Source: an uncultured bacterium (GTDB lineage: Bacteria; Zixibacteria; MSB-5A5; GN15; FEB-12). Taken from it: a stretch of DNA of 64,000 nucleotides. The notes under the pieces were generated by a model. That model did no database searches, was not told the DNA's origin, and saw only the letters and a program-made list of their open reading frames with translations. Numbering within the stretch: position 1 is the stretch's first letter; every line of letters starts with the position of its first letter. Positions 4,358 through 22,356 of the stretch are shown piece after piece. Position numbers and translations under genes: made by a program. The stretch spans positions 32,001-96,000 of the forward strand of contig CBDVDR010000007.1 in the NCBI GenBank assembly GCA_965372795.1, read 5' to 3'.

Positions 4358-4397
4358 TAAGGCAAATCCTCCATCAATTTTAATCAATATCAATAAT

Positions 4398-4481: not shown

Positions 4482-4499
4482 GGTTAGTAACCTCTAGGC

Positions 4500-4736: not shown

Positions 4737-4753
4737 TTTTTTTAAGAAAGTAT

Positions 4754-4939
4754 GTGCCCTATATAAGGCACATAAAGCGAATGAATCAATTAAAAGTTGA
4801 AAGGAGATTTGTACCCATAGAAAAGGTAAAAGCTGAAGAGTTGTCTAACGCTTTTTGGCGAATCTTAGTCGGAGGTGCAATATCTGCAACCTCCATTAAA
4901 CAAAAAATGTCCCTCAAAAAGGAGAATTACAATGGATAA
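4754..4939 (+). CDS. Small hypothetical protein (candidate directionality factor; start may be 4781)
   Basis: Fills the operon between cro and the SpoVG-like genes and overlaps the next start; function is inference from position. Confidence 0.4.
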   Translation: MPYIRHIKRMNQLKVERRFVPIEKVKAEELSNAFWRILVGGAISATSIKQKMSLKKENYNG

Positions 4940-5231
4940 CGAAATAATCGTTGAATTAAGACAAATTGAAGACAATAAATTTTCAAAAGCTAAAGCAGAA
5001 ATAACTCTGCAAACTCCTTTTGGTGAAATTACAATAACTAGAATGAGAGTAGTTCACCAAGATGGTAAAGATCCTTGGGTGGCATTTCCCGAAATACCAT
5101 ATCAACCTAAGGATTCTTCTGAAAAACGATACTTGAAAGTTATTTTGCCAAGTAAAAGATTAAGAGCTGCAATATCAGAAGCAGTACTTAATAAATATGG
5201 GAGTATGAAATTCAATGAGAAATCATTCTGA
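4932..5231 (+). CDS. SpoVG-like nucleic-acid-binding protein
   Basis: AAGGAG RBS; KAKAEITL...ITITRMRVV...WVAFPE resembles SpoVG. Confidence 0.65.
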   Translation: MDNEIIVELRQIEDNKFSKAKAEITLQTPFGEITITRMRVVHQDGKDPWVAFPEIPYQPKDSSEKRYLKVILPSKRLRAAISEAVLNKYGSMKFNEKSF

Positions 5232-5532
5232 TATCACAGCTACAATTCATCTATTTAAAGATGCTCAGAATCTTAAAGCTTATGCTGATGTAGCTATTAA
5301 AACTCGAATAGGCGAAATTACTATTCGTAGATTTAAAGTGATTTCAACTAATTCTGGTAAATTGTGGGTTGCACTTCCCCAATTTGAGTATCAAAAAATT
5401 CTTTCAACTTCTTATGTGGATGCAATTGTAACCACTAAAAGAGCATTTCGCAGAATTCAAAGATTAGTTTTGAATGAATACAAAAAGAAGATTCATCTGG
5501 AAAATTCCCATGTTCAGGTTGATCGCTCCTGA
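5215..5532 (+). CDS. SpoVG-like nucleic-acid-binding protein (paralog)
   Basis: LKAYADV...ITIRRFKVI...LWVALPQ. Confidence 0.7.
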   Translation: MRNHSDITATIHLFKDAQNLKAYADVAIKTRIGEITIRRFKVISTNSGKLWVALPQFEYQKILSTSYVDAIVTTKRAFRRIQRLVLNEYKKKIHLENSHVQVDRS

Positions 5533-5559
5533 CATGGGGGGCGTACGGTTTGCCCTAAT

Positions 5560-5661
5560 GAGAGCAGCTTCAAGGCTGCTCTCTGACCGGTGCCCAAGCC
5601 GCCGGGGTCCTATTGGCGAATGCCAATGGGCGGCGGCAACAAAGCGATTGCCCGAAGGGCA
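5560..5661. other. GC-rich multi-hairpin region upstream of rep (candidate single-strand origin or structured RNA)
   Basis: Three hairpins: GAGAGCAGC/GCTGCTCTC; GCCGCC..CCTATTGGC-GAAT-GCCAATGGG..GGCGGC; TGCCC-GAA-GGGCA. Confidence 0.5.
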
Positions 5662-5738
5662 TACTGGCTTCTTGGTTGCTCTTGTTTCTGGCGTCATTTG
5701 TTGTCTATCTGTCAACTCGCAATTTTGGAGGAATTTAT

Positions 5739-6458
5739 ATGGCTTCTTCACTTGATATTAATAAGCATAATCGAAACAAGTTCTGCGGAAGATATTCACT
5801 AAAAGGATATTTAGAACAAAATGGAGAAAAGAAAATTAGATACGCAAGGCTCGGATGTAAAGGATGGAACTGTCAAATATGTGGACCTAGAAAAGCTTCT
5901 AAGTATCGTCATTCAATCAAAGAACAAGCTCTAAAGTTAAACTTAGATAGATTTCTTACATTAACTTTGGATCCCAAAAAATGCAAACCACATAATTCCT
6001 TGCCACATATAAAAAAGAGTTGGGCTAAATTCAGAATTTCTTTAAAAAGAAAATATGGTCATAGCATTTCATTTATCTGTATTGTGGAATTCCAAAAAAA
6101 TGGTTATGCACACTTACATATTCTTGTTGATCGTTTTATACCTCAAAAATGGATATCACACGCTTGGAATTCTGTAGGTGGAGGAAAGATCGCATTTATT
6201 GAGAGAGTTGAATTAAAGAGTATTGCTTATTATATAACTAAATATTTAACTAAAGATACAAACTTCAATAATTCGGGGAAGCGATACCGAAAATGCACAA
6301 CATCTAGAAATATTAAACTAAATTATCATAAGAAATCAGGGAAATGGGTAGTTATGACAGTTCCTATTGAAGAAATACATAATTCTTATAAGAAACAACA
6401 ATCGAAAGAACATAGAGATATGTCTGGGATGTTACATTGGTTTGAGATTTCAGTATGA
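5739..6458 (+). CDS. Rolling-circle replication initiator (HUH endonuclease)
   Basis: GGAGG at 5727 then ATG 5739; CxxxxCxxC, motif I FLTLT, motif II HLHIL, motif III YITKY. Confidence 0.85.
   Translation: MASSLDINKHNRNKFCGRYSLKGYLEQNGEKKIRYARLGCKGWNCQICGPRKASKYRHSIKEQALKLNLDRFLTLTLDPKKCKPHNSLPHIKKSWAKFRISLKRKYGHSISFICIVEFQKNGYAHLHILVDRFIPQKWISHAWNSVGGGKIAFIERVELKSIAYYITKYLTKDTNFNNSGKRYRKCTTSRNIKLNYHKKSGKWVVMTVPIEEIHNSYKKQQSKEHRDMSGMLHWFEISV
5750..5764 (+). other. Putative double-strand origin / nick site (CTTG^ATA)
   Basis: ACTTGATATTAATAA matches 15 consecutive nt of the phiX174 origin and lies inside the 5' end of rep. Confidence 0.7.
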
Positions 6459-6555
6459 ATTGGTATGTATTTAATTACCTTGACTTAAAAAGGATCAATA
6501 ATTACATTTATACAAACAGGACTAATTCATCTAGAAAAAACTAGAGGGGAATCAC

Positions 6556-7101
6556 ATGGACCTAATCCCAGAATTTAAGAAATTTGCAAAAAAAAGAGCC
6601 AAAGAAATAAAGGCAATGACTGATGTTCAATTTACTCCTGAAACTGCTCAGGTTAACATTGCAGGTCAACAACTTCAATTCAAATTAAATGTAGAGCAAA
6701 CAGCTGCTTGGAAATTGTATGTTGAATTAAATACAAGGATCTCTACTCAACCCTTATCCAAAAAAGACGGGCTATTAAGGGAAGCATTATCTTCTCTTTA
6801 TATAATATTTGGAGTTACAAGAGATATTTTAAAAGAAGCTGGACCTGGCGTAGCAATCGGTCCAAATTCTTTTGGATATTATGCTATGGAAATTCTCAAT
6901 CAAGTTATAAGACCGTTGTTAGCAAAATGGAATCATAAATTACTTAATTGTTAAAAACATAATAAATTAAATTTATCTCAATTTGAACATTAAAAAAAAT
7001 GGAATAAACAAATAGCTTTACGAAAAGAGATTGAAAAAACAAGAAAAGTAATAATTGAATATAATAAATCTTTAGCCATAATCGCAGGGATTTCAAAATA
7101 A
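6556..7101 (+). pseudogene. Hypothetical gene interrupted by two in-frame TAA (6952, 6991)
   Basis: The same frame continues past both stops (KKWNKQIALRKEIEKTRKVIIEYNKSLAIIAGISK) to 6 nt before the TIR gene. Confidence 0.65.
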
Positions 7102-7107
7102 TAAGTT

Positions 7108-7584
7108 ATGATTAAAAGACAAGTTTTTATAAGCTTCCATCATAAAAATGAGCAATCTGTAGTAGACGATTTTGTGAATGCATTCAGCACTTACTATGAC
7201 GTTTTTACTGACAGATCTCTTGATAGAGCTGCAGATAGCGATGATACTGAATACTTAAATCAAGTATGTAGAGATGCCATAGAAGGTACAAGTATAACAA
7301 TCGTAATAATAGGTACTGAAACTGGTAAAAGAAAATTTGTAGACTGGGAAATTAAACATACTTTATTAAAAAAACATGGACTTCTAGCTATATTTCGACC
7401 AAACCTAGAAGATCACCTTACAAATTTGCCGAATCGCTTAATTGACAACATAAATTCAGGATATTCAAATTGGTATAAATACCCATCTTCTCCAGAAGAT
7501 CTGCGATTAATGTTAGAAAAAGCATACAATATAAACAAAGCTTTGATAGACAATAGTAGAGAAAAAATGAAAAGAAACCTATAA
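7108..7584 (+). CDS. TIR-domain protein, ThsB/MTH538-like
   Basis: VFISFHH, TSITIVIIGTETGKRKFVDWEI (conserved Glu). Confidence 0.85.
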   Translation: MIKRQVFISFHHKNEQSVVDDFVNAFSTYYDVFTDRSLDRAADSDDTEYLNQVCRDAIEGTSITIVIIGTETGKRKFVDWEIKHTLLKKHGLLAIFRPNLEDHLTNLPNRLIDNINSGYSNWYKYPSSPEDLRLMLEKAYNINKALIDNSREKMKRNL

Positions 7585-7616
7585 TGTTCTTAACGATAAG
7601 CCATTTGAGTATCTAA

Positions 7617-8261
7617 ATGAATATAAATAATTCGTATAAGTGGGATATTTTTATTAGTTACCATAGATTACCTGCAATTGAAAAATGGTTAAAAGAAATA
7701 TTAATTCCTTTACTCGAACTTCATCTACCAAGTTCATTGGGAAGAGAAGCAGATATATTCTGTGATGATAATATAAAAACTGGTAATCATTGGCCAAATG
7801 AATTGAGCGATGCATTAGCATATTCTAAAGTATTGTTACCAATTTGGACTGTACTTTATTTTCATCGAGAATGGTGTTTAAAAGAGTGGTTAACTATGGT
7901 CAACAGAGAATCTAAATTAAATAGTCTTTCAAGGGAAGAGCAATTTACATTAATCAAGCCGATAAGACTACTTGATGGAAATAAATATCCTATATTTGCT
8001 CAAAATACACAAAGTTTAACCTGTACTAATTATTTTACAACTTCTGAATGTTATAAACAAACACTCGAGTATATAAACCTAGAGAAAAAGATAACAGATT
8101 GGTGTAATAATGACTTAGGACAATCGATAGTTACTGCACCACCTTGTCAAGAATTTTGGTTAAATGAAGAATTTTCTAGAAATTCAATAAGAGCTTTAGA
8201 ATCACAAAGTGAAATGCAACCTATTGATTTAAACACAACACCAAGATTAGGTAATGAATGA
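7617..8261 (+). CDS. TIR-domain protein (TIR_2-like)
   Basis: WDIFISY, IFCD..I..G..WP..L..AL..S, YFHREWCLKEW. Confidence 0.85.
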   Translation: MNINNSYKWDIFISYHRLPAIEKWLKEILIPLLELHLPSSLGREADIFCDDNIKTGNHWPNELSDALAYSKVLLPIWTVLYFHREWCLKEWLTMVNRESKLNSLSREEQFTLIKPIRLLDGNKYPIFAQNTQSLTCTNYFTTSECYKQTLEYINLEKKITDWCNNDLGQSIVTAPPCQEFWLNEEFSRNSIRALESQSEMQPIDLNTTPRLGNE

Positions 8262-10747
8262 GTAAAATAATTACATTCTATTCTTACAAAGGTGGAGTTG
8301 GTCGTTCCATGGCATTAGCAAACGTTGCGGTAAAACTATCAGGATTGGGACATAAAACTCTTATAATAGATTGGGATCTTGAAGCTCCAGGATTGGAATT
8401 CTATTTTAAAGAATATTTGGATTTAAGTAAAATAAAAACTAAACCAGGCATTATTGATATTTTAAAAGGAGATCATTCTACAAATTTAAAATCAACTAAA
8501 TGGACAGATTGCATCTCAACAATTAGTATTGATAATGCAACTCCATCCATACATTTTATATCATCAGGTAGCAACAAAGATAATTATTATAAAAAAGTAC
8601 AAGAATTTGATTTAGATAGTTTCTTTAATAAGAATAAAGGACAATCCCTGTTATACGAATTAAGAAATGAATGGTTAAATACTTATGACTTTATCCTCAT
8701 CGATAGTCGTACTGGCATTACAGACTATGGAGGAATTTGTACTATTCTTTTACCAGATGTAAACATACTATTTGTGACAACTAACGATCAAAGTCTTACA
8801 GGTAGTGAATATGTATTTGAAAAAGCGCATCAAATTAGAAAACAACTCCCTTACGATTATGAAAACATTATTTTTGTTCCAATATTAAGTAGATATGATG
8901 CTACTGAAGAATATCAAATTTCACAAGATTGGATAAAAAAAATAGATAAATCATTGTCTAAACTTTATGAGAAATGGACACCAAGGAACATTATAACAGA
9001 AGAACTAATTCAACAAACAAGCATTCCTTATATCCCATATTTTAGTTACGGTGAAAGACTTGCAGTTTTAGAAGAAAGTTCATCAATGACTAGATCTTTA
9101 AGCAATGCATATGAGAACCTTTCAGCATTAATTGCAAATAATTTCCAATATCTTGATGATATGATAAATAATCGAAGAAGTTTTTTAGCAAGAGCTTCAA
9201 AAATAAAAAATAAAGATGACTTAAGATTGAGACACACTGTTCCGCTTGTAAATTCTCCAGATTTAATCCATTTAAATTATGATAATCATCAAAAATGGTT
9301 AAGTACAAATGGTTCTGCAGGAGATCAAATGGATATAAAAAACAAAGAATTTTTAAATTTAGAACTTTTTGATCTTAATTTAGGCAAGTCCGAATTCAAC
9401 ACTTCAACAATGAAGAACTCCAATTTCACTTTTATTGATTTTTCTCATTCATCTTATAGATATAGTAATTTTTCGGGATCCAAATTTACATCTTCAAACC
9501 TATCATCTATAGATGGTTTTAATGCAATCTATATTAATGTCATATTTGATGGTGTAAGCGCTACACTATCCGATTTGTCTACTAGCAATTTAACAGATGC
9601 TATAATTAAAAACTCTGATTTTTTTCAATCAAATTTAGATGATTGTAATATGCAAAATTCCAAACTTCAAAATTCAAACTTTGATCTTGCTAGTTTTAAA
9701 AATTCTGATTTGAACTCTTCGAATCTCGAGCATTCAAATTTTTATAGATCTAATTTTGCAAATGCAAACCTTAGATCATGCATTTGTTATGATGCAGATT
9801 TTAAAGGGGCTAACTTCAGTGATGCTAATCTAGCATATGCAAAGGGATTAAAAGAATCTCAACTAAAAATGACAATATTAGATTTTGCAAAATTACCTGA
9901 TCATATAAATTTTAGTGATTCACTAAATTCTTTTGGTAAAAATTTAAAAAGTGTACAGAGTTCATTTTGGATAACATCTATAATTGCACTTACTTATTTG
10001 TTTGCTCTTATAAATTACTTAACAATCGGTAACTCTAAAGAGTTTATTATTTTTTTACCAAATCTCCAAAATTTCGCCATTCCACAAATAATTGCAATTA
10101 TAATTTCCATGTACTAGTCACAAAGTTTATGGGATAAAATATCAAAATTACCATGTAGTTTTCCTGATGGTAAAACTCTTCATGAAAAAGGAGATTCTAT
10201 TTTTTTTGTAGGAAATATTTTTCCTACGCTCCAGAGAAATAACATAAGAGCTAATCCATTTAGGAGTATTCTATTCATAAGTTTGTATTGGGGATCTACA
10301 TCTATAATCTATGTTTCTGGTGCTTTTGTCATTTATACATATCCTAATTTTTATCCAGATACTAATTTCACTTTTTCCTTTATAGTTGCAATTTCATTAA
10401 GTTTAATAGGAATTTTATCATATTTTTATTCTAATATAAAGTTAGCTAAAAATAATAGACCAAGTTTTATTTGTTCTCACGAAGTAGCATTATTTAATTT
10501 GCCAAAAAAAATGTTTAAATATGAAATGTTAGATTTATTAGATAATTATGGAAGAATCTTAAGTTTAAGAAAAACAATTAGTATCAATGATGATATAGTG
10601 TGGAGTGTAAGGTTAGAGAGTAATTTTCAGGTACAAAAAGTGATAAAAAGTCTTGATCGTAGTAATTTTCATAATAAAGTGATAAGAGCTATTGGTATAC
10701 CGATTGGAGAGGAATTATCTAAAACTCTATATAATAGAGTCAAATAA
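8258..10747 (+). pseudogene. ParA-like (KGGVGR) ATPase + pentapeptide repeats + TM segments + RRM-like tail; one in-frame TAG at 10115-10117
   Basis: YSYKGGVGRS deviant Walker A, DWDLEAPG, DSRTG; pentapeptide repeats; the frame stays open after the TAG (SQSLWDKISKLPCSFPDGKTL...) and joins ORF 10283-10747. Confidence 0.7.
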
Positions 10748-10810
10748 TTTCATGATACACGATCTAAGGATTATATCTTAGCTTACCATAATTGATAGAA
10801 AAGTTGTCTA

Positions 10811-11557
10811 TTACTTCAACTTTATGACGTCAATTATTTCATCACCTTCATCTAAGTTAATTAACCTATCTCCATCTAATATTAAAACATCAGAAGAACC
10901 GATCCAGATACTAGTTGAATATGTATAATAGTCATCAACTTGATATAAACTTCCATCTAACATCTCTAATATTGAACCATCTCCTTTTACTTCATAAATA
11001 TATGCCTCTTCAACATCGCAAGAAGTTGCATAACTAGCTTCTTTTAATATATCACACCTATAAGATCTCTTACCTTCGATCCATATTTTCCATTGGTTGC
11101 TTACTCTGTAAAGTACTGCAGTCTTTCGATATCCTATATATCCTAAATATCCAGAAGTTATTTCAACAATAGCACCATTATCCAAAGTAACTACATCTTT
11201 AATATCAGAGTCTACTTTACTAATATAAGCAATATCTGAATTTGGAGATCCTTTTATATTGGTTGGATTACTTTTCTTCTGATTCACTATATTTTTTCGA
11301 AAGATTTCTGAGCATTCTTTATATCCCATCTCATAAATACCATTCATCAATTTATTTAATTTATTTTTCTCTAAGTCAGTTAATTTTCTTAATCCGATAG
11401 AATTACTCATAATCGTATCATTTTGAATTATTGATATAAAATTAAATTCAAATTGAGTAGTATTTTGAGCTAAACTAATTTGTACAATAAAGATAAGTAT
11501 AGTTAGTTGAATGTAGATATGCCTGATTAAGAAAAATAGTGATTTATTCTTTTTCAT
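10811..11557 (-). CDS. Exported hypothetical protein
   Basis: Long ORF with a signal-peptide-like N-terminus and an internally repeated beta-rich module. Confidence 0.6.
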   Translation of the reverse strand: MKKNKSLFFLIRHIYIQLTILIFIVQISLAQNTTQFEFNFISIIQNDTIMSNSIGLRKLTDLEKNKLNKLMNGIYEMGYKECSEIFRKNIVNQKKSNPTNIKGSPNSDIAYISKVDSDIKDVVTLDNGAIVEITSGYLGYIGYRKTAVLYRVSNQWKIWIEGKRSYRCDILKEASYATSCDVEEAYIYEVKGDGSILEMLDGSLYQVDDYYTYSTSIWIGSSDVLILDGDRLINLDEGDEIIDVIKLK

Positions 11558-11729
11558 AAAATACACCCTTATTTTTATAAGATTTAGCCTAATTTATTGA
11601 AAATATACTAAGAAGTCAATATAGTTACAATATAACAAATTACCTGAAGATAAGACCATTTTTGAATAACTTTATATCAAAAAAAAAAAATTAAATTTAA
11701 CTTATATAGATCGTTTTATAACGAATCTA

Positions 11730-11814
11730 ATAGTTCGCAATTCGTACAATACGGGGAGCTTAAGTTTTTCTACTCAACAACTTACTAAAATTCAATTTGT
11801 ACGGATTGCGAACT
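11730..11814 (+). repeat. att site 1: arm + GA core (11756-11757) + IHF-like box + displaced inverted arm
   Basis: AGTTCGCAATTCGTACAA (11732-11749) and TTGTACGGATTGCGAACT (11797-11814) form a 17/18 inverted repeat; the 32 bp at 11730-11761 are identical to 12579-12610. Confidence 0.9.
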
Positions 11815-12606
11815 TATGTTATAATTGATGATCAAGTCTAATTATTGTATATTATATTTTTGAAATTGAATGATTGAAATGATAATTAGTTTTATGATTA
11901 ATTTATATCCATGAGGTGTGTATGGAAAACAGTGAATTGATTCTAGAATATTTAAAGATATTTCTTACTTGGCCGGTTATTGGAGGTGTATTACTATTAA
12001 TTTTTATTTTCAATTTCAAATCTTCCATTGTAGGAATATTTAACAGAATAAGGAGTGCTAAGGTTGGTAATGTAGAATTTGAAGCCCCACTTATTCAAAA
12101 AGAGCTGAGTGATATAAAATCAGATCATACATTACTTGATAGTAATGTTATAGTGAACGATTCAAATGATAACTCAATTGATGAACAGACTTATAAGGAA
12201 AAATATGAAACCTTATTGGGGTTATATAACGATATTCAATTAGAATTTTATTTTGAAATGTTACTTAATATTTTATTTGGCACACAATTAAGATTATTAC
12301 AATCTATAAATAATATCGGAGATGATGGTATTGACTTAGATCGTATTTATCCTTTCTATAATGAGAATCTCTCTAAGAGCAAATTAACCAATTGGGGAGT
12401 CAATGATTTTTTGAGAATCTTAATTAATTACAATATAATTAATAAGAATGAATCTACGAATAAATATCAAATTACTCCAAATGGAACTAATTTTTTGTCA
12501 TATGTTGAAAAAAATCATAACCATAAATTTCAATCATTACAGTTTTAATATTATTTATCTATTAACAGCTTGAACCTTATAGTTCGCAATTCGTACAATA
12601 CGGGGA
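11756..12606. mobile_element. Unit 2: single-gene, integrase-less cassette (849 bp core to core)
   Basis: Flanked by identical 32-bp direct repeats. Confidence 0.8.
11922..12548 (+). CDS. Membrane-anchored hypothetical protein with a possible C-terminal winged helix
   Basis: GAGGTG RBS; N-terminal TM (LTWPVIGGVLLLIFIF); C-terminal YQITPNGTNFL. Confidence 0.7.
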   Translation: MENSELILEYLKIFLTWPVIGGVLLLIFIFNFKSSIVGIFNRIRSAKVGNVEFEAPLIQKELSDIKSDHTLLDSNVIVNDSNDNSIDEQTYKEKYETLLGLYNDIQLEFYFEMLLNILFGTQLRLLQSINNIGDDGIDLDRIYPFYNENLSKSKLTNWGVNDFLRILINYNIINKNESTNKYQITPNGTNFLSYVEKNHNHKFQSLQF

Positions 12607-12667
12607 GCTTTATTAATTCTCTTTCATATCAACAACTTACAACATTACAGATTGTACCTTTTCGACT
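12579..12667 (+). repeat. att site 2: arm + GA core (12605-12606) + IHF box + degenerate arm
   Basis: ATAGTTCGCAATTCGTACAATACGGGGAGCTT; TATCAACAACTTA at 12627-12639 fits WATCAANNNNTTR; TTGTACCTTTTCGACT. Confidence 0.88.
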
Positions 12668-12754
12668 AATCAATTTCTAGAAAATCTGAAACTTATATAA
12701 TAATCTTATTTTGTAAGTAGGAACGAAAATTAATCTTCCATCTGTTAGAAATAA

Positions 12755-12982
12755 TTGTTTTTCCTGTAGTTTGTGAACTGGTTCATCTAGGAAGTAGTAT
12801 TCACCCTCGGTCGCTGCATCGAGCATCCCGATAATGTTAAGCTGGGCTGAATTTCCTGCACCCTAAGGTCCCATGACGGTGACGAAGTCACCATCGTAGA
12901 TTTCCAATTTAACATGCCTGAGAACGTATGTGTTCACGCCACCGTTCTTATAGCTCTAGGTTATGTTGTCAAGTCTGATCAT
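12755..12982 (-). pseudogene. Truncated ABC ATP-binding gene
   Basis: MIRLDNIT*SYKNG...DFVTVMGP*GAGNS..LNIIGMLD...GEYYF; two TAG, broken Walker A, cut off near the cassette end. Confidence 0.8.
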
Positions 12983-13015
12983 AATGTCAATATCCTTCGA
13001 AAGTAATTCTTTGTT

Positions 13016-13086
13016 CTATTCATGTCGTATCGCGTCAATCGGATTGGCGATTAACGCGACGTTATGGACAGTCGCCTAGTGTGCAT
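13016..13086 (-). pseudogene. C-terminal remnant of an ABC permease paralog
   Basis: ALIANPIDAIRHE* matches the permease C-terminal motif. Confidence 0.6.
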
Positions 13087-13094
13087 AATTTTGT

Positions 13095-15470
13095 TTATTC
13101 AGAACGAAGAGCGTCCACAGGATTAGATCGCGCTGCCCGGAAAGCTTGCGAGCCGACCGTTACAGAAGCCACCATGAGCGCAATCAGAGTTGGTAGCAAA
13201 AACAGCCAGACGTTAAGTTCGATGCGGTAAGGGAATTGTTCCAACCAACCATTCAGCAGATACCACGCGATAGGCCAGGCAACCAAGCTGGATAAAGCCA
13301 CCAGAGTTATAAACTCCCGGGTCATCATCATGACCAACTGCTGGATAGAGGCACCAATCACTTTGCGAACGCCAATTTCCTTGGTTCGTCTCTCAGCCGC
13401 AAAAGCGGACAAACCCAAAAGACCCAGGCAGGCGATGAACACACCCAATGCGGAGAAGACGGAAAACAAATACATCAACTTGCGATAATCATCATAACGC
13501 TCGGAAATAAGGTTATCGAGATACTTCGCAACAGGTGCCTTTTCTGAGAATACTTCTTCGTACACCGAAGCAATTTGTGACTTCATTTGTGCTTGATTCT
13601 CGTCTGGCAATTCCAGGGCCAACACCCGCCCTATTGTATTTCGATGGAGAATCACTGTTGGCTGTATCTCGCTATTGAGAGGGTGCGCGTGAAAGTCCTT
13701 CACCACCCCAATCACAGTGAAGATTCTATCGGGTCTCATTAGCTGGAAACCAATCGGCTCCTTGATCCCCATTGTTTTAACCGCGGTTTCGTTGATCAAG
13801 ACCATGTTGGGGGTGTTTGAGTTTGCTTCGCTATCCCATGACTTGCCAGCAACGAGTTCTAATTTAAGCGTTTTGAAGTAATCGTTGTCTCCGGCAAGAA
13901 AATTAAACATTACTTTCTTGCCTTCGTCGTAGCTCTCAGGATGAAATGACAACAGGCTTGTCCTATTCTCGCCGGGGACCGCAGTGGCTATAGTAAGGTT
14001 TGACAGCCCAAGCCGGCTGAGGTCATTTTTGAACAGGACTTTTTTATCATTGGATGCTTTGTCGGGGAACTCATACAAAAGGATATTCTCGTGACTAAAC
14101 CCAAGGTCAGCCGCTCCGGCAAATTCAATCTGCTCGTTGATGCCAAAAGTGAGACACATGAGGATGATAGCACAGGTTGCCTGAAACGCAACCAATACAC
14201 GCCTTAGATTAAATCGACCGGTTGACGCGATAGCACTGTTTTTTAAAACCTCCTGTGGATGAAGTCGGGAAAGTACAATTGCCGGGTAACTTCCTGATAT
14301 CAGACCTACCAAAAGAATCAAACTCGGTCCGGCCAGCCAGACTATCGGACTTTCCATAAGACCGATTGAGAGAGGTTTGCCAGCATACTGTTCCATGGCT
14401 GGGATTGTTAATTCAAAAACCACCAATCCAGCCGCCATCGCTATAGTAACCATAATGACGGACTCAGCTAAAAATTGATGCGCCAACTGCCATCTTCCGG
14501 CACCAAACACTTTGCGAATCCCAACCTCTTTGGTTCGATGAGCCATACGAGCAGTAGTGAGATTGATATAGTTCATGCAGGCTATTACCAAAAGCAACAT
14601 GGCGATGCCTGAGAAAATATATATCGTCTCCATTGAACCCCTGGGATCAAGTTCGTTGCTTAGGTCTGGATTCAAGTAAATCGATAGCAAAGGTTGTAGT
14701 TCCAGTTTAAATTCATCAGCCTTGTCTCCCAGATGAACCGTAAGCAAATCCGGAATCTTAGCTTCAATAGATGCCAGATCGACGTCTTCAGACAAAAGCA
14801 AGTAGGTGTAAGCTTTACCCCACCAACCTTCCCAGGTGGTAAGATCCTCTCCCATAGTCTCAAGGGTTGCATAGGAAGCAAGGAAATTAGTTTTGAGCTG
14901 GGTGTTGTCCGGCATGTCACTCATTACGCCGGTAATAATCATTTCTATATCGTCATGAATTTTGACTGTTTGACCAATCGGATCACTGTTCGGGAAGAAG
15001 CTTTCACTGATACTCTGTGATATTATCAAGCTATTTGGGCTCAAGAGAGCGGTCGCTCGGTTTCCGTTTATGAGCGGAATAGAAAAGACCTCAAGCATTT
15101 CGGGATCGACCATCAGGAATTGAGTTTCTACAATAAACTTATCGTGTCCGAACTCTATTTTAACGTCCTTGTCCTGGTAAATTCTGGCCTGTTGTTCAAT
15201 TTCCGGCATAGTTTCTTTCAGGGCCGGTCCGGCTGGGTGCATGATATTGGCCGTTGAGATCATATCATCATCACGTTCCCAAAAGCAAACTACCCGGTAG
15301 ATATTATCGGCGTTCGGATAATGAGATTCGTAGCTATACTCGTATGAAACATACGCCAATATCAAAAGACAAGAACCCAAACCCAACGCGAGACCAAGGA
15401 TGTTGATACAAGTATAGAGCTTTTGTTTTCTTAGTGACCTCAAAGCGGTTCTCAGGTAGTTACGAATCAT
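13095..15470 (-). CDS. MacB/FtsX-like ABC transporter permease (duplicated-domain type)
   Basis: MIRNYLRTALR..., two RTKEV/IGI/VRKV.GA motifs, NPVDALRSE end. Confidence 0.92.
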   Translation of the reverse strand: MIRNYLRTALRSLRKQKLYTCINILGLALGLGSCLLILAYVSYEYSYESHYPNADNIYRVVCFWERDDDMISTANIMHPAGPALKETMPEIEQQARIYQDKDVKIEFGHDKFIVETQFLMVDPEMLEVFSIPLINGNRATALLSPNSLIISQSISESFFPNSDPIGQTVKIHDDIEMIITGVMSDMPDNTQLKTNFLASYATLETMGEDLTTWEGWWGKAYTYLLLSEDVDLASIEAKIPDLLTVHLGDKADEFKLELQPLLSIYLNPDLSNELDPRGSMETIYIFSGIAMLLLVIACMNYINLTTARMAHRTKEVGIRKVFGAGRWQLAHQFLAESVIMVTIAMAAGLVVFELTIPAMEQYAGKPLSIGLMESPIVWLAGPSLILLVGLISGSYPAIVLSRLHPQEVLKNSAIASTGRFNLRRVLVAFQATCAIILMCLTFGINEQIEFAGAADLGFSHENILLYEFPDKASNDKKVLFKNDLSRLGLSNLTIATAVPGENRTSLLSFHPESYDEGKKVMFNFLAGDNDYFKTLKLELVAGKSWDSEANSNTPNMVLINETAVKTMGIKEPIGFQLMRPDRIFTVIGVVKDFHAHPLNSEIQPTVILHRNTIGRVLALELPDENQAQMKSQIASVYEEVFSEKAPVAKYLDNLISERYDDYRKLMYLFSVFSALGVFIACLGLLGLSAFAAERRTKEIGVRKVIGASIQQLVMMMTREFITLVALSSLVAWPIAWYLLNGWLEQFPYRIELNVWLFLLPTLIALMVASVTVGSQAFRAARSNPVDALRSE

Positions 15471-15494
15471 GAATGTACACTCACTTTCTAAAAC

Positions 15495-15662
15495 CTATTC
15501 ATATTTTAGTGATTCAATCGGATTAGACGAAGCTGTCTTTATCGCTTGATAGCTATCAACAAAGCGAGCAATGCCGTTAGCCAGCCCGACTATATTGAGT
15601 AGAGTAATACCGTCCTGACGACGGGTCGATCTCAACGCGATCTTGAGAAAGTTCTTAAGCAT
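15495..15662 (-). pseudogene. 55-aa internally deleted permease paralog (N- and C-termini fused in frame)
   Basis: MLKNFLKIALRSTRRQDGITLLNIVGLANGIARFVD-SYQAIKTASSNPIESLKYE*. Confidence 0.75.
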
Positions 15663-16341
15663 GACGAGTCTTTATGTCTTCTGTTACAACAGCGCCATCG
15701 AAAAGGTTGATGGTACGACTGCAGTAGTCAGCGAATGCCTGAGAATGAGTGACCATTACGATCGTAGTGCCTTCTTCATTGAGTTTCGTCAGGCAGGTCA
15801 TCACATCCTGTCCGTGGGCTGAGTCAAGATTGCCGGTTGGTTCATCGGCGAGAATCAGTCTTGGATTGGCAACAACTGCTCTTGCAACAGCCACACGTTG
15901 TTGTTGACCACCTGATAACTGTTGTGGGAAATGCTTTGAACGGGCAATGATCTCAAACTCTTTAAGTGCCTTGTTGACGCGTGTTCTTCTCTCAGATGCG
16001 GCTATCCCGAGATAGAGAAGAGGCAGTTCGACATTCTCAAAGATGTTCAGTTCATCAATCAGGTTAAAATTCTGAAAGACAAACCCGATGTTGTTCTTGC
16101 GAAGACTGGCTCTTTGACGTTCGGTATATTTGGAGACTTCAGTTCCGAGCAAATGATATTCTCCCCCGGTTGGGTTATCCAGAAGTCCAAGAACATTCAG
16201 CAGAGTTGATTTGCCACAACCAGATGGTCCCATAATTCCGACAAACTCACCTTCTGCGATGTGGATTCCAATATCGTTTAGTGCCGTTGTCTCGATGTCT
16301 TCGGTGCGGTAAGTTTTTTGCAGGTTGACGGTACGAATCAT
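15655..16341 (-). CDS. ABC transporter ATP-binding protein (MacB/LolD-like)
   Basis: GPSGCGKS, LSGGQQQR, ILADEPTGNLD; start MIRTVNL with AGGAG RBS. Confidence 0.93.
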   Translation of the reverse strand: MIRTVNLQKTYRTEDIETTALNDIGIHIAEGEFVGIMGPSGCGKSTLLNVLGLLDNPTGGEYHLLGTEVSKYTERQRASLRKNNIGFVFQNFNLIDELNIFENVELPLLYLGIAASERRTRVNKALKEFEIIARSKHFPQQLSGGQQQRVAVARAVVANPRLILADEPTGNLDSAHGQDVMTCLTKLNEEGTTIVMVTHSQAFADYCSRTINLFDGAVVTEDIKTRHA

Positions 16342-16378
16342 GGTTATTACTCCTTTTAACATTGTCATTATATTTTTC

Positions 16379-17629
16379 CTATTTAAATACGAGTTGGTCA
16401 ATTTCGCCAAAAGTTTCATAGGAGGAAGTAACCACTTTTTCCCCCGGTTTAAGACCTTCAAGTACTTCGTAGTAGATTGAATTTGAACGCCCCAATCGGA
16501 TAACACGTTTTTTGGCCAGATTGTCTGTCTCATCTACAACATAAACCCATTGACCACCCGTGCTTTGCCAGAAAGCTCCACGCTTAATCAGAATTGCCTC
16601 GGAGGAGCCACCCAGATTAAGGCGGATACGAAGTGTTTGGCCACGTCGGATTCCTTTTGGAGCACTTCCGATAAATTGCAGGTCCACTTCAAAGCGACTG
16701 TTAACAACCTCAGGGTAAATTTTCTCAACCAGCAGTTCAATGTCTTCATCATCAAAAGTAGAGGTTGCTTTTTGTCCGACCTGTACTCTTGAGAGATAAT
16801 GCTGGTCCACCTGGACTCTCGCTTTGAAACCTACCGGGATATCTATTCTCCCCAACTGTTCACCACGATTCTTAGTTTGTCCAATTTCTGCATTCAACGA
16901 AGTCAACTGCCCGTCTATCGGGGCTCGTAACGTAAGATTATCGAGTTTTTGTTTTACCATATCAAAATTGTCTTCCATGCGTGTCAATCCCTCTTGAAGT
17001 TGACCAACCTGAGTCTCCCTGAAAACAGAATCTTGTCGAGCATTTTCAACTGTTAACTCAAACTTAGCGGCGTAGTACTCAAATGTCTCTTTGGCTTCAT
17101 CGAACATTCTCACCGAGATTAACTCCTTTGTCAGAAGCGCTCGAAATTCTTCGTAAGTACGCTTTTTCTGAGATAATTGGTACTTGAGATCAAGCAGTTG
17201 TTCGGCCATTCGAAGCCGATTCTGCTGCATAGCTAAACGAGTGTTTCGTAAGTTATTCGATTGCTGAAAAAGCTCTGCTTCACGAAACATGATATCCAAA
17301 AGAAGATTAGTATTAGCCAGTCGCAGAATAGGGTCGCCTTTGTTGACATAAGAACCTGCCTCAACAAATACCGAGTCCACCTGTCCACCTTCAGTTGCAT
17401 CCAGAAATATCGTCCGAAGAGGAATCACTGTGCCTGTTTCAGGAATGAACTCCTGAAATTCACCTACGGTTACATCTGAAATAGAAATACGTTCGATATC
17501 GACACTGAGTCTGGAACTGTGATCTCCAAAAATTAGATTGTATAGAATTAAAATAGTCGCCAGTCCACCCACTGATAAGTAAGCAATCATTTTGATTGTC
17601 CAGAATTTCCGTTCGATCAGTCTATCCAT
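16379..17629 (-). CDS. Efflux periplasmic adaptor (HlyD/MFP family)
   Basis: N-terminal TM, lipoyl-like EGGQVDSVFVE.G..V.KGDPI, long helical hairpin. Confidence 0.88.
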   Translation of the reverse strand: MDRLIERKFWTIKMIAYLSVGGLATILILYNLIFGDHSSRLSVDIERISISDVTVGEFQEFIPETGTVIPLRTIFLDATEGGQVDSVFVEAGSYVNKGDPILRLANTNLLLDIMFREAELFQQSNNLRNTRLAMQQNRLRMAEQLLDLKYQLSQKKRTYEEFRALLTKELISVRMFDEAKETFEYYAAKFELTVENARQDSVFRETQVGQLQEGLTRMEDNFDMVKQKLDNLTLRAPIDGQLTSLNAEIGQTKNRGEQLGRIDIPVGFKARVQVDQHYLSRVQVGQKATSTFDDEDIELLVEKIYPEVVNSRFEVDLQFIGSAPKGIRRGQTLRIRLNLGGSSEAILIKRGAFWQSTGGQWVYVVDETDNLAKKRVIRLGRSNSIYYEVLEGLKPGEKVVTSSYETFGEIDQLVFK

Positions 17630-17724
17630 ACGAGAGATGTCACTCATACACTATTTCTCACAATCTATGTTGCAGTTCAATATTTTTAAGACGGCCAAAT
17701 AGCGTCTCGGTTGCTAAAAGACAT

Positions 17725-17833
17725 TACAATAATCGTGCCAGTTCAAGTAAGTCGTTGTTATACAACAAAACTAATGGTATTGCGGTGGGGTTTTACTGCC
17801 CGCTTATGGAGGTTTGCTGTACGAATGCGTACA
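17725..17833 (-). promoter_or_regulatory. Sigma54 promoter with IHF-like site and activator UAS for the exporter operon
   Basis: TGGCACGATTATTGTA (-24/-12, 17740-17725); TAACAACGACTTA IHF-like box; TGT-N10-ACA palindrome at 17818-17833. Confidence 0.7.
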
Positions 17834-18006
17834 CTAAATCCCTTGCCCCAAAGCAACTATCGGATTACTTTGTATGTAAGTCACTGTTAATCAACGATCT
17901 GAATTGTTTTCTCGTGATGGTATGTTTTCTGCTTTCATCTTTACATTGAAAGCAACAACGATTAGAAATGCACAAGAAGTGAAAGTGACAATGGAGTGTG
18001 TGACGA

Positions 18007-19392
18007 ATGAGCGAATTGAATTTTAGTTCAAGCCGAATCCTTGTAGTCGATGACGACCCTGATGTGCTTTTGGCGGCACGACTTCTGCTTAAGCAGCATG
18101 TCGCCGAGGTAGTCACCGAACCTGATCCCAATCGAATCCAAGAACATCTTGGCACGAGCGATTTTGATATCGTGATGTTGGATATGAATTTTACACGGGA
18201 TCAAACGAGCGGTGAAGAGGGGCTCCATTGGCTCAAGCAGATTTTGAAATGGGATCCCGAGATGGTCGTAGTAATGATCACTGCATACGGTGACGCCGAA
18301 ATTGCCGTTCACACGATCAAGAGCGGAGCGACTGATTTTGTTCTAAAGCCGTGGCAAAATGAAAAGCTGCTTGCCACGATGTTCTCCTCTCTGAAGCTTC
18401 ACCACTCACAAAAAGAGGTTGAGAATCTTAAGCAGTCTCGACGACAGTTAAGTGCCGACATGGATCAGCCGTTTGGGGATTTTATTGGTTCAAGTAAGGC
18501 AATGAAAGAGGTGATCGCCACTATCGCAAAGGTGGCGGTAACCGACGCGAACGTTTTGATAACAGGGGAGAACGGGACTGGTAAAGAATTGGCCGCAAGG
18601 GCAGTTTACCGACGATCGCTTCGTGCTGGTGAAGTATTTGTCAAAGTTGATATGGGATCAATAGCCGAGACGCTGTTTGAATCGGAGCTGTTTGGTCATG
18701 TAAAGGGAGCTTTCACCGATGCGAGAGAAGATCGCGCAGGCAGATTTGAGATTGCATCAGGGGGGACGCTTTTCCTCGACGAAATCGGAAATACTCCGAT
18801 CACACTACAGGCTAAACTATTGACCGTTTTGCAAAGTCGCCAGGTTACCAGAGTAGGTTCAAATAGTACAACACCAATTGATATTAGACTAATATCAGCC
18901 TCGAATATGCCGCTCGAGGAATTGGTCGAAAATAAGCTCTTTCGCCAGGATTTGCTCTATCGAATCAATACCATAGAGATTGTTTTACCGCCACTCAGAG
19001 AGAGGATTGATGATATTGATGATCTGGCAGAGTATTATCTCAAGATGTATGCGGGGAAATATAAGAAGAGCGTGAATGGTATCACGCCTGCTGGAATTAA
19101 TAAGCTCAAATGCCAACCCTGGCGCGGCAACATAAGAGAGCTTCAGCATACGCTCGAACGAGCGGTTATAATGAGCGAGTCGGATCAGTTGACACCGGAT
19201 GATTTCCCGTTTAGTCAAAGTGGTGATTTGGCTGACTCAAAACTTATGGCGAGTCATAATTTGGAAAAGATTGAGCGGACTATAATTGTTCGCGTACTCT
19301 CTTTGAATGACAACAATATCAGCCATGCTGCCGAAGTATTGGGACTCACACGCACATCACTTTATCGTCGTATGCAAAAACATGGTCTTTAA
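18007..19392 (+). CDS. Sigma54-dependent response regulator (NtrC family)
   Basis: Receiver domain, GENGTGKE, GAFTDA, C-terminal Fis HTH. Confidence 0.95.
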   Translation: MSELNFSSSRILVVDDDPDVLLAARLLLKQHVAEVVTEPDPNRIQEHLGTSDFDIVMLDMNFTRDQTSGEEGLHWLKQILKWDPEMVVVMITAYGDAEIAVHTIKSGATDFVLKPWQNEKLLATMFSSLKLHHSQKEVENLKQSRRQLSADMDQPFGDFIGSSKAMKEVIATIAKVAVTDANVLITGENGTGKELAARAVYRRSLRAGEVFVKVDMGSIAETLFESELFGHVKGAFTDAREDRAGRFEIASGGTLFLDEIGNTPITLQAKLLTVLQSRQVTRVGSNSTTPIDIRLISASNMPLEELVENKLFRQDLLYRINTIEIVLPPLRERIDDIDDLAEYYLKMYAGKYKKSVNGITPAGINKLKCQPWRGNIRELQHTLERAVIMSESDQLTPDDFPFSQSGDLADSKLMASHNLEKIERTIIVRVLSLNDNNISHAAEVLGLTRTSLYRRMQKHGL

Positions 19393-20728
19393 GCATTTTA
19401 GAATACAAATAATCTCGCGCGTTCTCATTTTATGTGTGACTATTTTGGCTGCAGCCTGGCTCCTGAGTGCAACTGAAAAGTATGCCACGACCGGGATGGT
19501 TATCCTATTGTTCATTCTACAGGTGATCTTTCTCATTCGATTTGTTGAAAAAACAAATCACACGATGGCAGAGTTCCTGCAAGCGATTGAATACGACGAT
19601 TTTACTCAGTCTTTCGGGAATGTTGCAAGCGGCAAATCGTTCGACGAGTTGAATCAGGCCTTTGTTAAAGTTTCTGCGAATTTCCGAGAGGTTCGTCTGG
19701 GGAGGGAGGAAAATTACAGATACTTGCAGACGGTCGTTCAGCATGTTGGAGTCGGCATGGTAGCATTTCAGGAGAGCGGAGAGGTCGAACTTTTTAACTC
19801 TACCGCCAAGAAGATACTGCAATTGGCTTCATTGAAGAATATCAATGACCTTAAAATGAAAAGTCCGGAACTTTTAGAACGTATTAAATTTCTCAATCCG
19901 GGAGAGCGCGATCTGGTTCGAGTCACAATTGATAAAAACTTGGTACAACTGTCTCTTTTTATGACTATCCTTAGGATGCGCAATCGCAAAATAACTCTGG
20001 TGTCGTTTCAGAATATCTCCGCTGAGCTTAACGAAAAAGAGATGCAGGCATGGCAGAATCTTATCAGGGTGTTCACTCACGAAATAAAAAACTCTTTGAC
20101 GCCGATCAGTTCTTTGGCTGGAACTATAGAAACTCTCTTAGTTCCAATTACGTCGCAACTAAACGTGAAGAATCGGGAGAGCATTACTGATATCTCCGAG
20201 GCTCTTACGACAATCAAGAGTCGTTCAGAAGGCTTACATGAGTTTATTAATGCTTATCGTGATCTGACAAACCTTCCCCAACCTGTGTTTGAATCGTTCA
20301 AGGTGACCTCTATGTTTGAGCGGGTTGGACAGCTTGTGAAAGATCAAATTCAATCTGGGGGGATTAATTACTGTGTAGAACTATCGAATCAAACCCTCTC
20401 GGTTACAGCAGACAGCAAAATGATCGAACAGGTGTTGATCAATCTGATCCTTAACTCAATCCAGGCTTTGAATGGATGTGAAAAACCGAAATTAAAAGTG
20501 TGTGGGTTTGTTGATTATCAGAATCGAGTAACAATTACTGTCGAAGACAATGGCCCGGGGATTGCGAATACGGCGATTGACAAAATATTCGTACCGTTTT
20601 TTACTACTAAGAAAACCGGCTCAGGAATTGGCCTAAGTCTGTCAAGGCAAATCATGCGTCTTCACAAAGGTGAACTAACTGTTTCGTCTGAACCAGATAA
20701 ACGCACAATCTTAACCATGCGCTTCTAA
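19382..20728 (+). CDS. Sensor histidine kinase (NtrY-like)
   Basis: Two TMs, PAS-like region, THEIKNSLTPI H-box, DNGPG and GSGIGL boxes. Confidence 0.93.
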   Translation: MVFKHFRIQIISRVLILCVTILAAAWLLSATEKYATTGMVILLFILQVIFLIRFVEKTNHTMAEFLQAIEYDDFTQSFGNVASGKSFDELNQAFVKVSANFREVRLGREENYRYLQTVVQHVGVGMVAFQESGEVELFNSTAKKILQLASLKNINDLKMKSPELLERIKFLNPGERDLVRVTIDKNLVQLSLFMTILRMRNRKITLVSFQNISAELNEKEMQAWQNLIRVFTHEIKNSLTPISSLAGTIETLLVPITSQLNVKNRESITDISEALTTIKSRSEGLHEFINAYRDLTNLPQPVFESFKVTSMFERVGQLVKDQIQSGGINYCVELSNQTLSVTADSKMIEQVLINLILNSIQALNGCEKPKLKVCGFVDYQNRVTITVEDNGPGIANTAIDKIFVPFFTTKKTGSGIGLSLSRQIMRLHKGELTVSSEPDKRTILTMRF

Positions 20729-21109
20729 GATGACCATTTGAGCCACAATTGATTATCTGCTTAGGAATTCTCTGCCAGCATAATCACGACAAGATGCAAT
20801 AAAATCTACCATAAAGCCTGTGCTATTTAAATACCGTTTCAACATTCTTGAATTCAGTTTCCATCTGACATAAAGAAAAATGTGTCTTAGATTTCAACTA
20901 CACTTGTCCGGATTGTTTGAAGACATTCAATTCTTTATTCCTAAATTTCATTATATCAACTATGCTTATGCCGCAGTTCTAAATTAGTCCACGATGGCCC
21001 GCCATTATATTTATTATTTCCGAATAGTGGTTCAAATCCTTTTGCTTGCCATATGTGTCCCTAATTTAAAAGGATATTGAAGTAATAACATTGTTAGAAT
21101 ACATCAAAA

Positions 21110-21195
21110 AGTTGCGAAATTCGTCTAATTGGGGGAGCTTTATAATCATAAAAATTTGAACCACTTACACAATAGCTTTATCGCACATTCGAACT
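21110..21195 (+). repeat. att site 3: arm + GA core (21135-21136) + IHF-like box + degenerate arm
   Basis: AGTTGCGAAATTCGTCTAATTGGGGGAGCTT ... TGAACCACTTAC ... TTCGAACT. Confidence 0.8.
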
Positions 21196-21291
21196 TTAAG
21201 CCACTCTTTCTCGTTATTCCACTATCAGTTAAGGAAAGTTGTATAGCTTTTTAACAGCTTGTACTTTTACTCTTTAATCCTGTTCAATAAA

Positions 21292-21308
21292 TAGACTTGA
21301 CAAGTCTA
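21292..21308 (+). promoter_or_regulatory. TTGACA -35 inside a perfect 8-1-8 palindrome (putative operator)
   Basis: TAGACTTG-A-CAAGTCTA. Confidence 0.5.
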
Positions 21309-21388
21309 CGCATTTTTTTAATTTAACTTTGTACTTATAAAATACTACTCAATTTTTTATAAATCGAAAACAGATGAAAGGTTTTAAT

Positions 21389-22159
21389 ATGAAGTACTTA
21401 TTTATTCTTGTTGTTCTTTGCCTGCTGATAATTGGCTGTTCTGATAATCCCGTCAAAAGCAGTAACGGTTTTATTTCCGTAGAATCCTTTGATGCTCCTG
21501 CTCCGGAAGGCATTGAGCATTTATATTTACATGTTCTTGAAGTATCAACTCATCATTCAGATGACGGTTGGATAGTTTTATCGGAACCTGATACGGTCAT
21601 CGATTATATGGAATTGATAAACGGTATAACTGTTTTGTTAGCCGATAGCGTTTCTCTCCCTGTTGGTGACTACGAGCAAATGAGACTGTTGTTGTCTGAC
21701 TCCAATGAAATTGTTATTGAAGGCACAACTTATGACTTAACTACGCCAAGTGCGCAACAATCCGGGATTAAACTCAATCTGAATTTTTCTGTTGAAGAGA
21801 ACCAACTGATAGAAATCTATGTTGATTTTGATATTTCAAAATCAGTTATCAGTGCCTCATCAAAGTATATACTCACTCCGACATTCCGTGCTTTCAAACA
21901 AATTTTATCTGGCACTATTGCCGGAACAGTCGTTGATGCTCTTGGCGACCCGCTTGAAAATATAACGATTGACGTTGCTGGAGTAGAATATGCAACATCA
22001 ACAATTACTGATGCTGAAGGCAATTATCTTTTGATACTTCCTGAAGATACCTATGATATTACTGCAACAGCTGAAAATCTGACAGCTAATAAGACTTATA
22101 CCGGCGTAGAGTTAAATCCTCTTGATGAATTGACAGGATTTGATTTTATAATGGAATAA
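21389..22159 (+). CDS. DUF4382-like lipoprotein with a C-terminal carboxypeptidase-regulatory-like Ig domain
   Basis: Lipobox IIGC; DAP..., GDYEQMRL, TPSAQQSGIKL, VDFDISKS; GTIAGTV...G.Y. Confidence 0.8.
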   Translation: MKYLFILVVLCLLIIGCSDNPVKSSNGFISVESFDAPAPEGIEHLYLHVLEVSTHHSDDGWIVLSEPDTVIDYMELINGITVLLADSVSLPVGDYEQMRLLLSDSNEIVIEGTTYDLTTPSAQQSGIKLNLNFSVEENQLIEIYVDFDISKSVISASSKYILTPTFRAFKQILSGTIAGTVVDALGDPLENITIDVAGVEYATSTITDAEGNYLLILPEDTYDITATAENLTANKTYTGVELNPLDELTGFDFIME

Positions 22160-22177
22160 TGATAAAAATAATAGATC

Positions 22178-22206
22178 AAACCGCCTGATTTTCAGGCGGT
22201 TTTTTT
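22178..22206 (+). terminator. Intrinsic terminator
   Basis: ACCGCCTGA-TTT-TCAGGCGGT followed by a T run. Confidence 0.85.
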
Positions 22207-22325
22207 GTCAATTAATATAAAAGCTAAACTCTTTGATTGTTGATCAGGTTACCTATAAGAGAAGAGCAAACTTCATCCACAATTTCTTAGATTTTCTCAA
22301 AAAAACTGCTGATCGTTGCTCAACC

Positions 22326-22356
22326 AGTTACAAAACTCGTCCAATTGGGGGAGCTT
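22326..22356 (+). repeat. att site 4 (distal attR-like end of the array), GA core at 22351-22352
   Basis: AGTTACAAAACTCGTCCAATTGGGGGAGCTT; not followed by the IHF box or inverted arm. Confidence 0.8.

Follow-up and report, generated by a model that had tools for sequence, protein, structure and literature searches.

A box and displaced arm recur at cassette junctions of a serine-recombinase array behind tRNA-Asn in Zixibacteria

We analysed a 64,000-nt stretch of DNA (the window) from an uncultured bacterium of the Zixibacteria (assembly GCA_965372795.1, contig CBDVDR010000007.1, positions 32,001 to 96,000 of the forward strand), in which a row of DNA units stands behind a tRNA-Asn(GTT) gene (1900..1973, + strand). 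The three units that lack a recombinase gene begin with a short box followed by an arm that is displaced from its usual place. This left-end module, which recurs in related genomes, is the subject of this work, and we tentatively read it as part of a long attachment site.

The sequence GGGGAGCTT occurs five times on the + strand of the window (at 1967, 11753, 12602, 21132 and 22348) and not once on its - strand. [quoted passage not shown] The GGGGAGC cores split the DNA 3' of the tRNA into a 9.8-kb island bearing a large serine recombinase (LSR) and three units without one. Each downstream core is preceded by an arm that resembles the T-arm of the tRNA, and these arms are of two types, P12, near-identical at sites 1 and 2, and P34 at sites 3 and 4. 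All four sites lie on the + strand and consist of a left arm plus the core. Site 1 (11732..11759, with AGTT at -25) and site 2 (12581..12608) are of the P12 type, and site 3 (21103..21138, with AGTT at -26) is of the P34 type, as is the terminal site 4 (22319..22354), after which the native flank follows. As sites 1 and 2 are mutual copies (88% over 49 nt and 75% over 36 nt), the window offers two independent cases at most.

With five cores in direct repeat, one recombinase gene and recombinase-free units that have attachment (att) sites at both ends, the locus is a case of tandem accretion, and the array is a serine-recombinase array. No tyrosine recombinase domain was found among the 21 open reading frames (ORFs) scanned between 1 and 26.8 kb, and tRNAs were the sole matches of an Rfam search.

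Besides the recombinase, element 1 (1972..11757; 23-33% GC, with one bin at 41%) carries genes for an ImmA-like peptidase, an XRE repressor, two SpoVG-like proteins, a rolling-circle-type Rep, a ThsB-type TIR protein, a second TIR protein and a ParA+pentapeptide protein. The region 7108-10117, with the two TIR genes and the ParA-like ATPase-pentapeptide fusion, resembles defence-type cargo. Unit 2 (11758..12606; 849 bp, ~25% GC) holds one ORF (11916-12548, 210 aa) that has no family. Unit 3 (12607..21136; 8.5 kb, 39-48% GC) carries genes for a MacB-type permease, an ABC ATPase, an HlyD protein, an NtrC-type regulator and a histidine kinase, and unit 4 (21137..22352; 1216 bp) carries a DUF4382 lipoprotein gene (21374-22159). 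We infer that the units were inserted one after another, with the newest adjoining the tRNA.

The sole recombinase of the array is an LSR of 514 aa (1934..3478, - strand), whose last ~13 codons cross the junction into the tRNA gene. Its product contains the domains Resolvase (PF00239, 9e-42), Recombinase (PF07508, 5e-16) and Zn_ribbon_recom (PF13408, 2e-14), and it does not have the size of a small resolvase (~200 aa). LSRs of this kind are common in the order, where they adjoin tRNA-Asp, tRNA-Asn or tRNA-Ser genes. A search for close relatives of this recombinase in public genomes gave a single weak match.

The sites of element 1 obey the LSR grammar of inverted half-sites, a short core and a 5-bp shift between attB and attP. 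All distances are counted here from the A of GGGGAGC. The T-arm of the tRNA is the host-side (B) arm, in which the AGTT(CG) motif starts 20 bp to the left of the core A, compared with 25 bp in the P12 arm, and the inverted copy (AACT) ends at +25 at site 0. The normal element-side (P') arm at this site (1974..1996, + strand) ends in TTGCGAACT and lies inside the recombinase reading frame; there is no box. A host half-site motif 5 bp closer to the core than the element half-site is also described for A118-family integrases in the part of PMC3783163 on these sites. Symmetry is centred on the A, which leaves GA and AG as candidates for the crossover dinucleotide.

The left ends of the three recombinase-free units are built differently from that of element 1. 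At site 1, the box TCAACAACTTAC (11774..11785, + strand) ends at +28 and is followed by a displaced arm (11797..11814, + strand) ending at +57, which is an inverted copy of the P12 arm in 17 of 18 positions and aligns with normal P' arms. The site 2 box (12629..12640, + strand) ends at +34, and its arm (12652..12667, + strand), with a deletion of 1 nt in the CGAACT motif, ends at +61. At site 3 the box TGAACCACTTAC (21157..21168, + strand) ends at +32 and the arm (21180..21195, + strand) ends in TTCGAACT at +59. The distance from box to arm is 29, 27 and 27 at sites 1, 2 and 3, respectively. Site 4 has neither box nor arm. The positions reported for sites 0 to 3 by the initial annotation of this DNA, made from the sequence, were all borne out by a recount from the core A, as was its statement on site 4.

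The initial annotation had compared the box with the binding consensus of integration host factor (IHF), WATCAANNNNTTR, and we used the consensus as supplied there; it derives from E. coli and is not validated for Zixibacteria. The perfect match claimed for site 2 does exist, at 12627-12639, and comprises the box plus flanking bases. Site 1 departs from the E. coli consensus at one position and site 3 at more than one. Over the whole window the consensus shows no enrichment (9 matches vs 9.3 expected), so the lone perfect match at site 2 means little by itself. The box pattern, with at most one mismatch, has 4 matches in the window vs 1.09 expected, a number reached by 1 of 100 shuffles; the fourth match, at 22320-22331, is the outer part of the site 4 left arm.

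Site 1 also contains the 17/18-bp inverted repeat that had been noted before, which forms an 18-pair stem on the + strand and 17 pairs with one mismatch on the - strand. As single-stranded DNA (ssDNA) this site folds at -16.8 kcal/mol (z -6.0), and none of 200 shuffles was as good. The folds of sites 2 and 3 are at shuffle level on both strands (z -0.1 to -0.9). There are no terminator-like sites in 11400-13200, nor at the modules within 20700-22600. Promoter-like matches are at shuffle level or below, with none at the modules.

The layout of core, box and arm is found behind tRNA-Asn-type cores in five other Zixibacteria genomes (G015, G004, G083, G085 and G086). The six genomes with the layout, counting that of the window, belong to one family and five genera. 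It stands behind P34 sites in G015 and G004, behind a pseudo-tRNA end in G085, and directly behind a genuine tRNA in G083 and G086. In these five genomes the boxes end at +34/35 and the arms at +61..64, with 27-29 bp from box to arm. Across all cases the distance from core to arm is 57-64 bp, a spread of 7 bp or ~0.7 helical turn. The displaced arm thereby sits 32-39 bp further out than the P' arm of LSR-bearing elements, and the inserted stretch between core and arm holds, near its midpoint, the conserved box ATCAAY..STTAC.

In an alignment of eight left ends, the invariant positions are the core, the AA and CTTA of the box and the ACT of the arm. The spacer is unalignable, and similarity stops directly past the arm. 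In a second alignment, the displaced arms of sites 1, 2 and G004 match the normal P' arms (that of site 0 and two in G042) over ~19 nt, and they also match the reverse complement of the P12 arm, ~10 nt before the arm included. From its alignment with normal P' arms, the displaced arm appears to be a real element-side half-site block, in line with the earlier proposal that it is a half-site. Looking behind the tRNAs of relatives had been put forward as a check, with a lack of conservation as the outcome that would count against the module; box and distal arm are kept in other genera.

Pattern scans placed the full layout at 6 of 18 places in 108 genomes of the family, where a reversed control pattern gave 20 places, and at 6 of 20 places in 160 genomes of the order, where the control gave 25. 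Matches were kept only if the left side was of tRNA type or a P-arm, and all true matches lie behind tRNA-Asn-type cores. A looser scan gave 63 places, with the reversed control also matching frequently. Public genomes, when scanned for the P34 arm, gave 19 true sites among the 80 matches listed. One of the public genomes (L230) shows a further full case, in which, counted by eye, the box-like motif ends at +35 and the arm at +63, and another (L217) shows the arm without a box. P34-type arms with a tRNA-Asn-type core were also seen in public metagenome-assembled genomes labelled Planctomycetia and Actinomycetes (L202, L204 and L207); these arms in bins of other phyla reflect either a wide spread of the elements or mis-binning.

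To measure how common the module is, a set of 43 junctions from 19 genomes was used, which had been collected by a search for the left arm plus core. The box is present in 14 of the 43 (shuffle mean 0.49), the arm, with at most one mismatch and at +41..+75, in 7 (shuffle mean 0.62), and box plus arm together in 7 (shuffle mean 0.012), one of which (G086) had been found using the box+arm pattern. Seven further junctions have the box without this arm. An exact match to the E. coli-derived IHF consensus at +9..+42 occurs in 6 of the 43 junctions (shuffle mean 0.036), and only 6 of the 14 boxes fit it exactly.

Other types of left end exist beside this one. Plain terminator hairpins serve as left ends in G115 and in a second array on contig C16 of the window's own genome, and in a second family of left ends, in G091 and G085, another distal block comes after the box. 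A normal, undisplaced P' arm is found at internal junctions of G042 and G086. In G042 (locus L083, reverse strand, 2964-3060 and 5748-5840) two copies of ~90 nt, each made of the normal P' arm and a remnant of the recombinase tail, stand one behind tRNA-Asn and the other behind a P34 site; no recombinase gene was found within the 12 kb examined. In G083 (locus L075, reverse strand, 2804-2872) there is an 'empty' 61-bp unit without cargo, in which a P34 site is followed by 33 nt and then by a P12-type arm and a second core.

The second array of the own genome (C16:38734-64020; L040 and L034) lies behind tRNA-Asp. Its 490-aa LSR overlaps the tRNA end, and it has six P34-like arms and cores that match the 3' end of tRNA-Asp. 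The units contain genes for a phosphoenolpyruvate carboxylase, a Ser/Thr kinase-TPR protein, an APH-aminotransferase fusion and a nitroreductase.

Similar arrays occupy seven syntenic loci of relatives, which have the upstream HPr-kinase/PDZ/tRNA-Asn order in common. To the right of the tRNA, the arrays share only short matches centred on the junctions, plus a few exceptions: one between L075 and L076, 282 nt long at 69%, and two weak ones in which L082 takes part. The cargo is unrelated among arrays and the first cargo genes stand in either orientation. A genome of the same genus (G001, L150 1640-1770) has a ~125-nt tail remnant of a C16-type recombinase directly behind tRNA-Asn. Its right flank shows no synteny with the window. 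Hydrogenase genes follow past the remnant, so this occupied tRNA-Asn gives no empty site for comparison.

In terms of mobility, the genes of unit 3 (~13.0-20.95 kb) are covered at 90-97% identity by short contigs in four public runs from cold-seep and marine sediments. In the same runs there is hardly any cover of element 1 and unit 2, or of the start of unit 4, the comparison having ended at 21879. Of the sampled words, the best runs, which consist of contigs, contain a share of 0.24 at most. A search of the 108 family genomes for homologues of the unit 2 protein gave just two weak matches (E 1.6e-4 and 4.6e-4), so that movement of this cassette is not traceable through its cargo. As a separate observation, a repeat of ~35 nt that forms a hairpin with a 9-bp stem lies at 22458-22496, 5' of a DUF4153 gene. 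Copies of it, 84-97% identical, are numerous in the own genome and in 17 of 40 relatives searched.

The reading that we favour, at a probability of roughly 40%, is that integrase-less cassettes have a long, asymmetric attachment site that includes a non-crossover accessory module, by analogy with Sin resH. Box and displaced arm would be the conserved element-side end of recombinase-free cassettes that tRNA-targeting LSRs stacked behind tRNA-Asn. We take the whole junction of ~95 bp, from left arm and core to box and distal arm, as the putative recombination site of the cassette, because box and arm are kept while the spacer is not, their spacing is fixed, homology ends at the arm and the layout occurs only at cores. 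The module may bind extra recombinase, and perhaps a bending protein, and could help a recombinase supplied in trans, here from element 1, to recognise or regulate the cassettes. The DNA adjoining the tRNA would meanwhile stay free of a normal P' arm. A bolder version, in which the tRNA-targeting LSRs of Zixibacteria run an integron-like cassette system with a regulated ~95-bp site, an IHF/HU-bent spacer and a distal recombinase site, seems unlikely to us.

Several points weigh against a long regulated site. LSRs need no accessory sites or factors, as far as their treatment in PMC3783163 goes, and the enzyme here is a 514-aa LSR. The spread of 57-64 bp from core to arm means that the module is not helically phased, unlike known res sites. 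Internal junctions with the normal arm in G042 and G086 imply that stacking needs no displaced-arm module. The presence of box plus arm in just 7 of the 43 junctions, and of the box alone in 7 more, makes the module one left-end family among several, and since left ends are related by descent, the junction counts are not independent and overstate independence. Unit 3 has mismatched flanks, with a P12-like left arm and a P34-type right arm. No joints at the sites were seen in the public-run contigs, which cover only unit 3 genes and are uninformative on excision.

The module could instead be a fossil of nested sites, an explanation that we consider doubtful. A tiny or emptied unit would once have lain between the core and a normal junction, and a ~20-bp deletion would have taken that junction's inner left arm and core, leaving the outer left-arm motif, as the box, to face the P' arm; the module would now be functionless and merely carried. 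Such a history would fit the resemblance of the box to the outer part of the P34 left arms in direct orientation, and the extra box match in the window does fall in the left arm of site 4. A weight matrix built from 24 left arms gives its best match on the + strand at +17..+23 in 7 junctions (p 0.006-0.10 each), the 33-35 bp from box to arm correspond to a full site of ~53 bp less ~19-20 bp, and the empty unit of G083 still has both arms intact. Degenerate arms and pseudo-tRNA ends are also abundant in the arrays (G085 at 2704, G042 repeats). What this history leaves unexplained is the selective conservation of box and arm, with an unalignable spacer, across five genera. Three versions of the module exist in the window alone, and the site 1 arm still matches the P12 arm at 17 of 18 positions. 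That the box is a direct copy of the outer part of the left arm is only moderately supported by the weight matrix and is weakened by the better fit of the boxes to ATCAA....TTR, which is exact in 6 of 14 boxes vs 0 of 24 left arms, with 5 of the 24 arms within one mismatch; we take the likeness as no more than a lead.

In the model of the initial annotation, host IHF bends the box and delivers the distal arm as right half-site, and the core-proximal DNA stays attB-like for continued insertion at the tRNA. In its favour, the exact IHF consensus is far above its expectation in the junction set, the own genome has two HU/IHF-family genes, at C29:4514-4810 and C11:88294-88593, of which one is HU-like and one IHF-like, box+arm ends stand directly behind the tRNA in G083 and G086, and element 1 was inserted beside such an end. 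A tRNA directly before a box+arm end is compatible with further insertion, and this part of the idea stands; the displaced arm is unnecessary for it, as stacking in G042 and G086 also used junctions with normal P' arms. On geometric grounds, a single U-turn would bring the arm, with its polarity reversed, close to the crossover and not to +17..+25, and precise delivery of a half-site is disfavoured by the 7-bp spread in core-to-arm distance. Together with a consensus from E. coli and HU/IHF homologues that both score below the curated NCBIfam cut-offs, this makes the model improbable. Some other left-end function, such as a tRNA trailer or terminator, a promoter of cassette genes or an operator for another DNA-binding protein, we hold to be a little less probable still. 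The terminator hairpins that form the left ends in G115 and in the C16 array would agree with it, and the module would always have adjoined the tRNA when inserted, but the modules show no terminator-like site, no excess of promoter-like matches and no Rfam family, and first cargo genes stand in both orientations. Finally, in an option that the initial annotation raised for site 1, the left and displaced arms might pair in ssDNA from rolling-circle replication, as an attC-like hairpin, which would then be the substrate. Site 1 folds strongly, and a rolling-circle-type Rep is among the products of element 1; against this, sites 2 and 3 do not surpass their shuffles in folding, the likeness of arm and left arm extends over only ~8 nt in other genomes, and serine recombinases act on duplex DNA. 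The hairpin as a general feature is close to refuted, and hardly credible as the working site.

If the integron-like version were true, an LSR would be under a control by accessory sites so far known for small resolvases only, and a tRNA gene would be the place where cassettes are taken up and let go in trans. Serine integrases are valued as tools for their short sites and because they need no helpers; a conserved distal half-site with a box like that of a bending protein would show LSR regulation by site architecture. The same sites would explain how recombinase-free gene units are collected at tRNA genes in uncultured bacteria, and this work defines the sites, the enzyme and the candidate host factors. 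Should the module be a mere fossil, the array would still be a clear case of serine-recombinase accretion at a tRNA gene. Our search of the literature, Zixibacteria included, brought up no account of cassette arrays of serine recombinases at tRNA genes.

Among known systems, integron attC arrays are similar in their rows of variable cargo, with a conserved site that is the only sequence common to the arrays, as here. Integrons use a tyrosine integrase and folded ssDNA attC sites, whereas here no tyrosine integrase was seen among the 21 ORFs scanned and folding is not conserved. The crossover lies in the middle of the junction here and at the edge of the conserved junction in integrons. Composite islands of the staphylococcal cassette chromosome (SCC), driven by Ccr recombinases, likewise contain tandem units without a recombinase. 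Elements that are mobilizable in cis (CIMEs) beside integrative conjugative or mobilizable elements (ICEs/IMEs), in the cases that PMC5704250 presents, are recombinase-free units that have an att site at each end and stand in a row with an element that bears the recombinase, at the end of one target gene, as in our array. These cases use tyrosine integrases, in contrast with the LSR here, and the accounts of CIMEs in that source describe no extended left-end architecture; its section on serine-recombinase IMEs has them insert within dispensable genes.

The closest enzymes are the LSRs of Listeria A118 (LI integrase), Bxb1 and phiC31, which have the same three recombinase domains and whose att sites, as outlined in PMC3783163, share with ours the imperfect inverted half-sites around a short core. 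Here, a tRNA gene is targeted at its 3' end. The textbook LSR sites of that source are 40-50 bp long without accessory sequence, whereas here conservation reaches out to +57..+64, with the P' block displaced by 32-39 bp and the box between. The ends of the IS607 family, in the portion of PMC6188088 on them, bear several recombinase dimers, more than a crossover site would; the enzyme is of a different type, with an N-terminal DNA-binding domain, and the element is a transposon and not a tRNA-specific cassette.

The assertion in the initial annotation that serine integrases normally need no bending factor holds for LSRs in PMC3783163; small resolvases such as Sin do use HU or IHF in the work covered by PMC2764113. 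Sin resH, in that work, is composed of a crossover site, a spacer that HU bends and a regulatory site II, and resF uses IHF when its site is set in the middle of the spacer. Sin resH/resF and Tn3 res (PMC2764113; PMC2602789) are alike in layout to the junctions as we read them, with a crossover site, a spacer bent by HU/IHF and a distal non-crossover site, ~90-115 bp in all and with a direct repeat. As these sources portray them, the Sin and Tn3 enzymes are small resolvases where ours is an LSR, their spacings are fixed where core-to-arm varies by 7 bp here, and their role is the resolution of replicon dimers, not the stacking of cassettes. The distal site of Sin resH binds recombinase according to the same description, and the distal arm here, at 57-64 bp from the core, is half-site-like by alignment.

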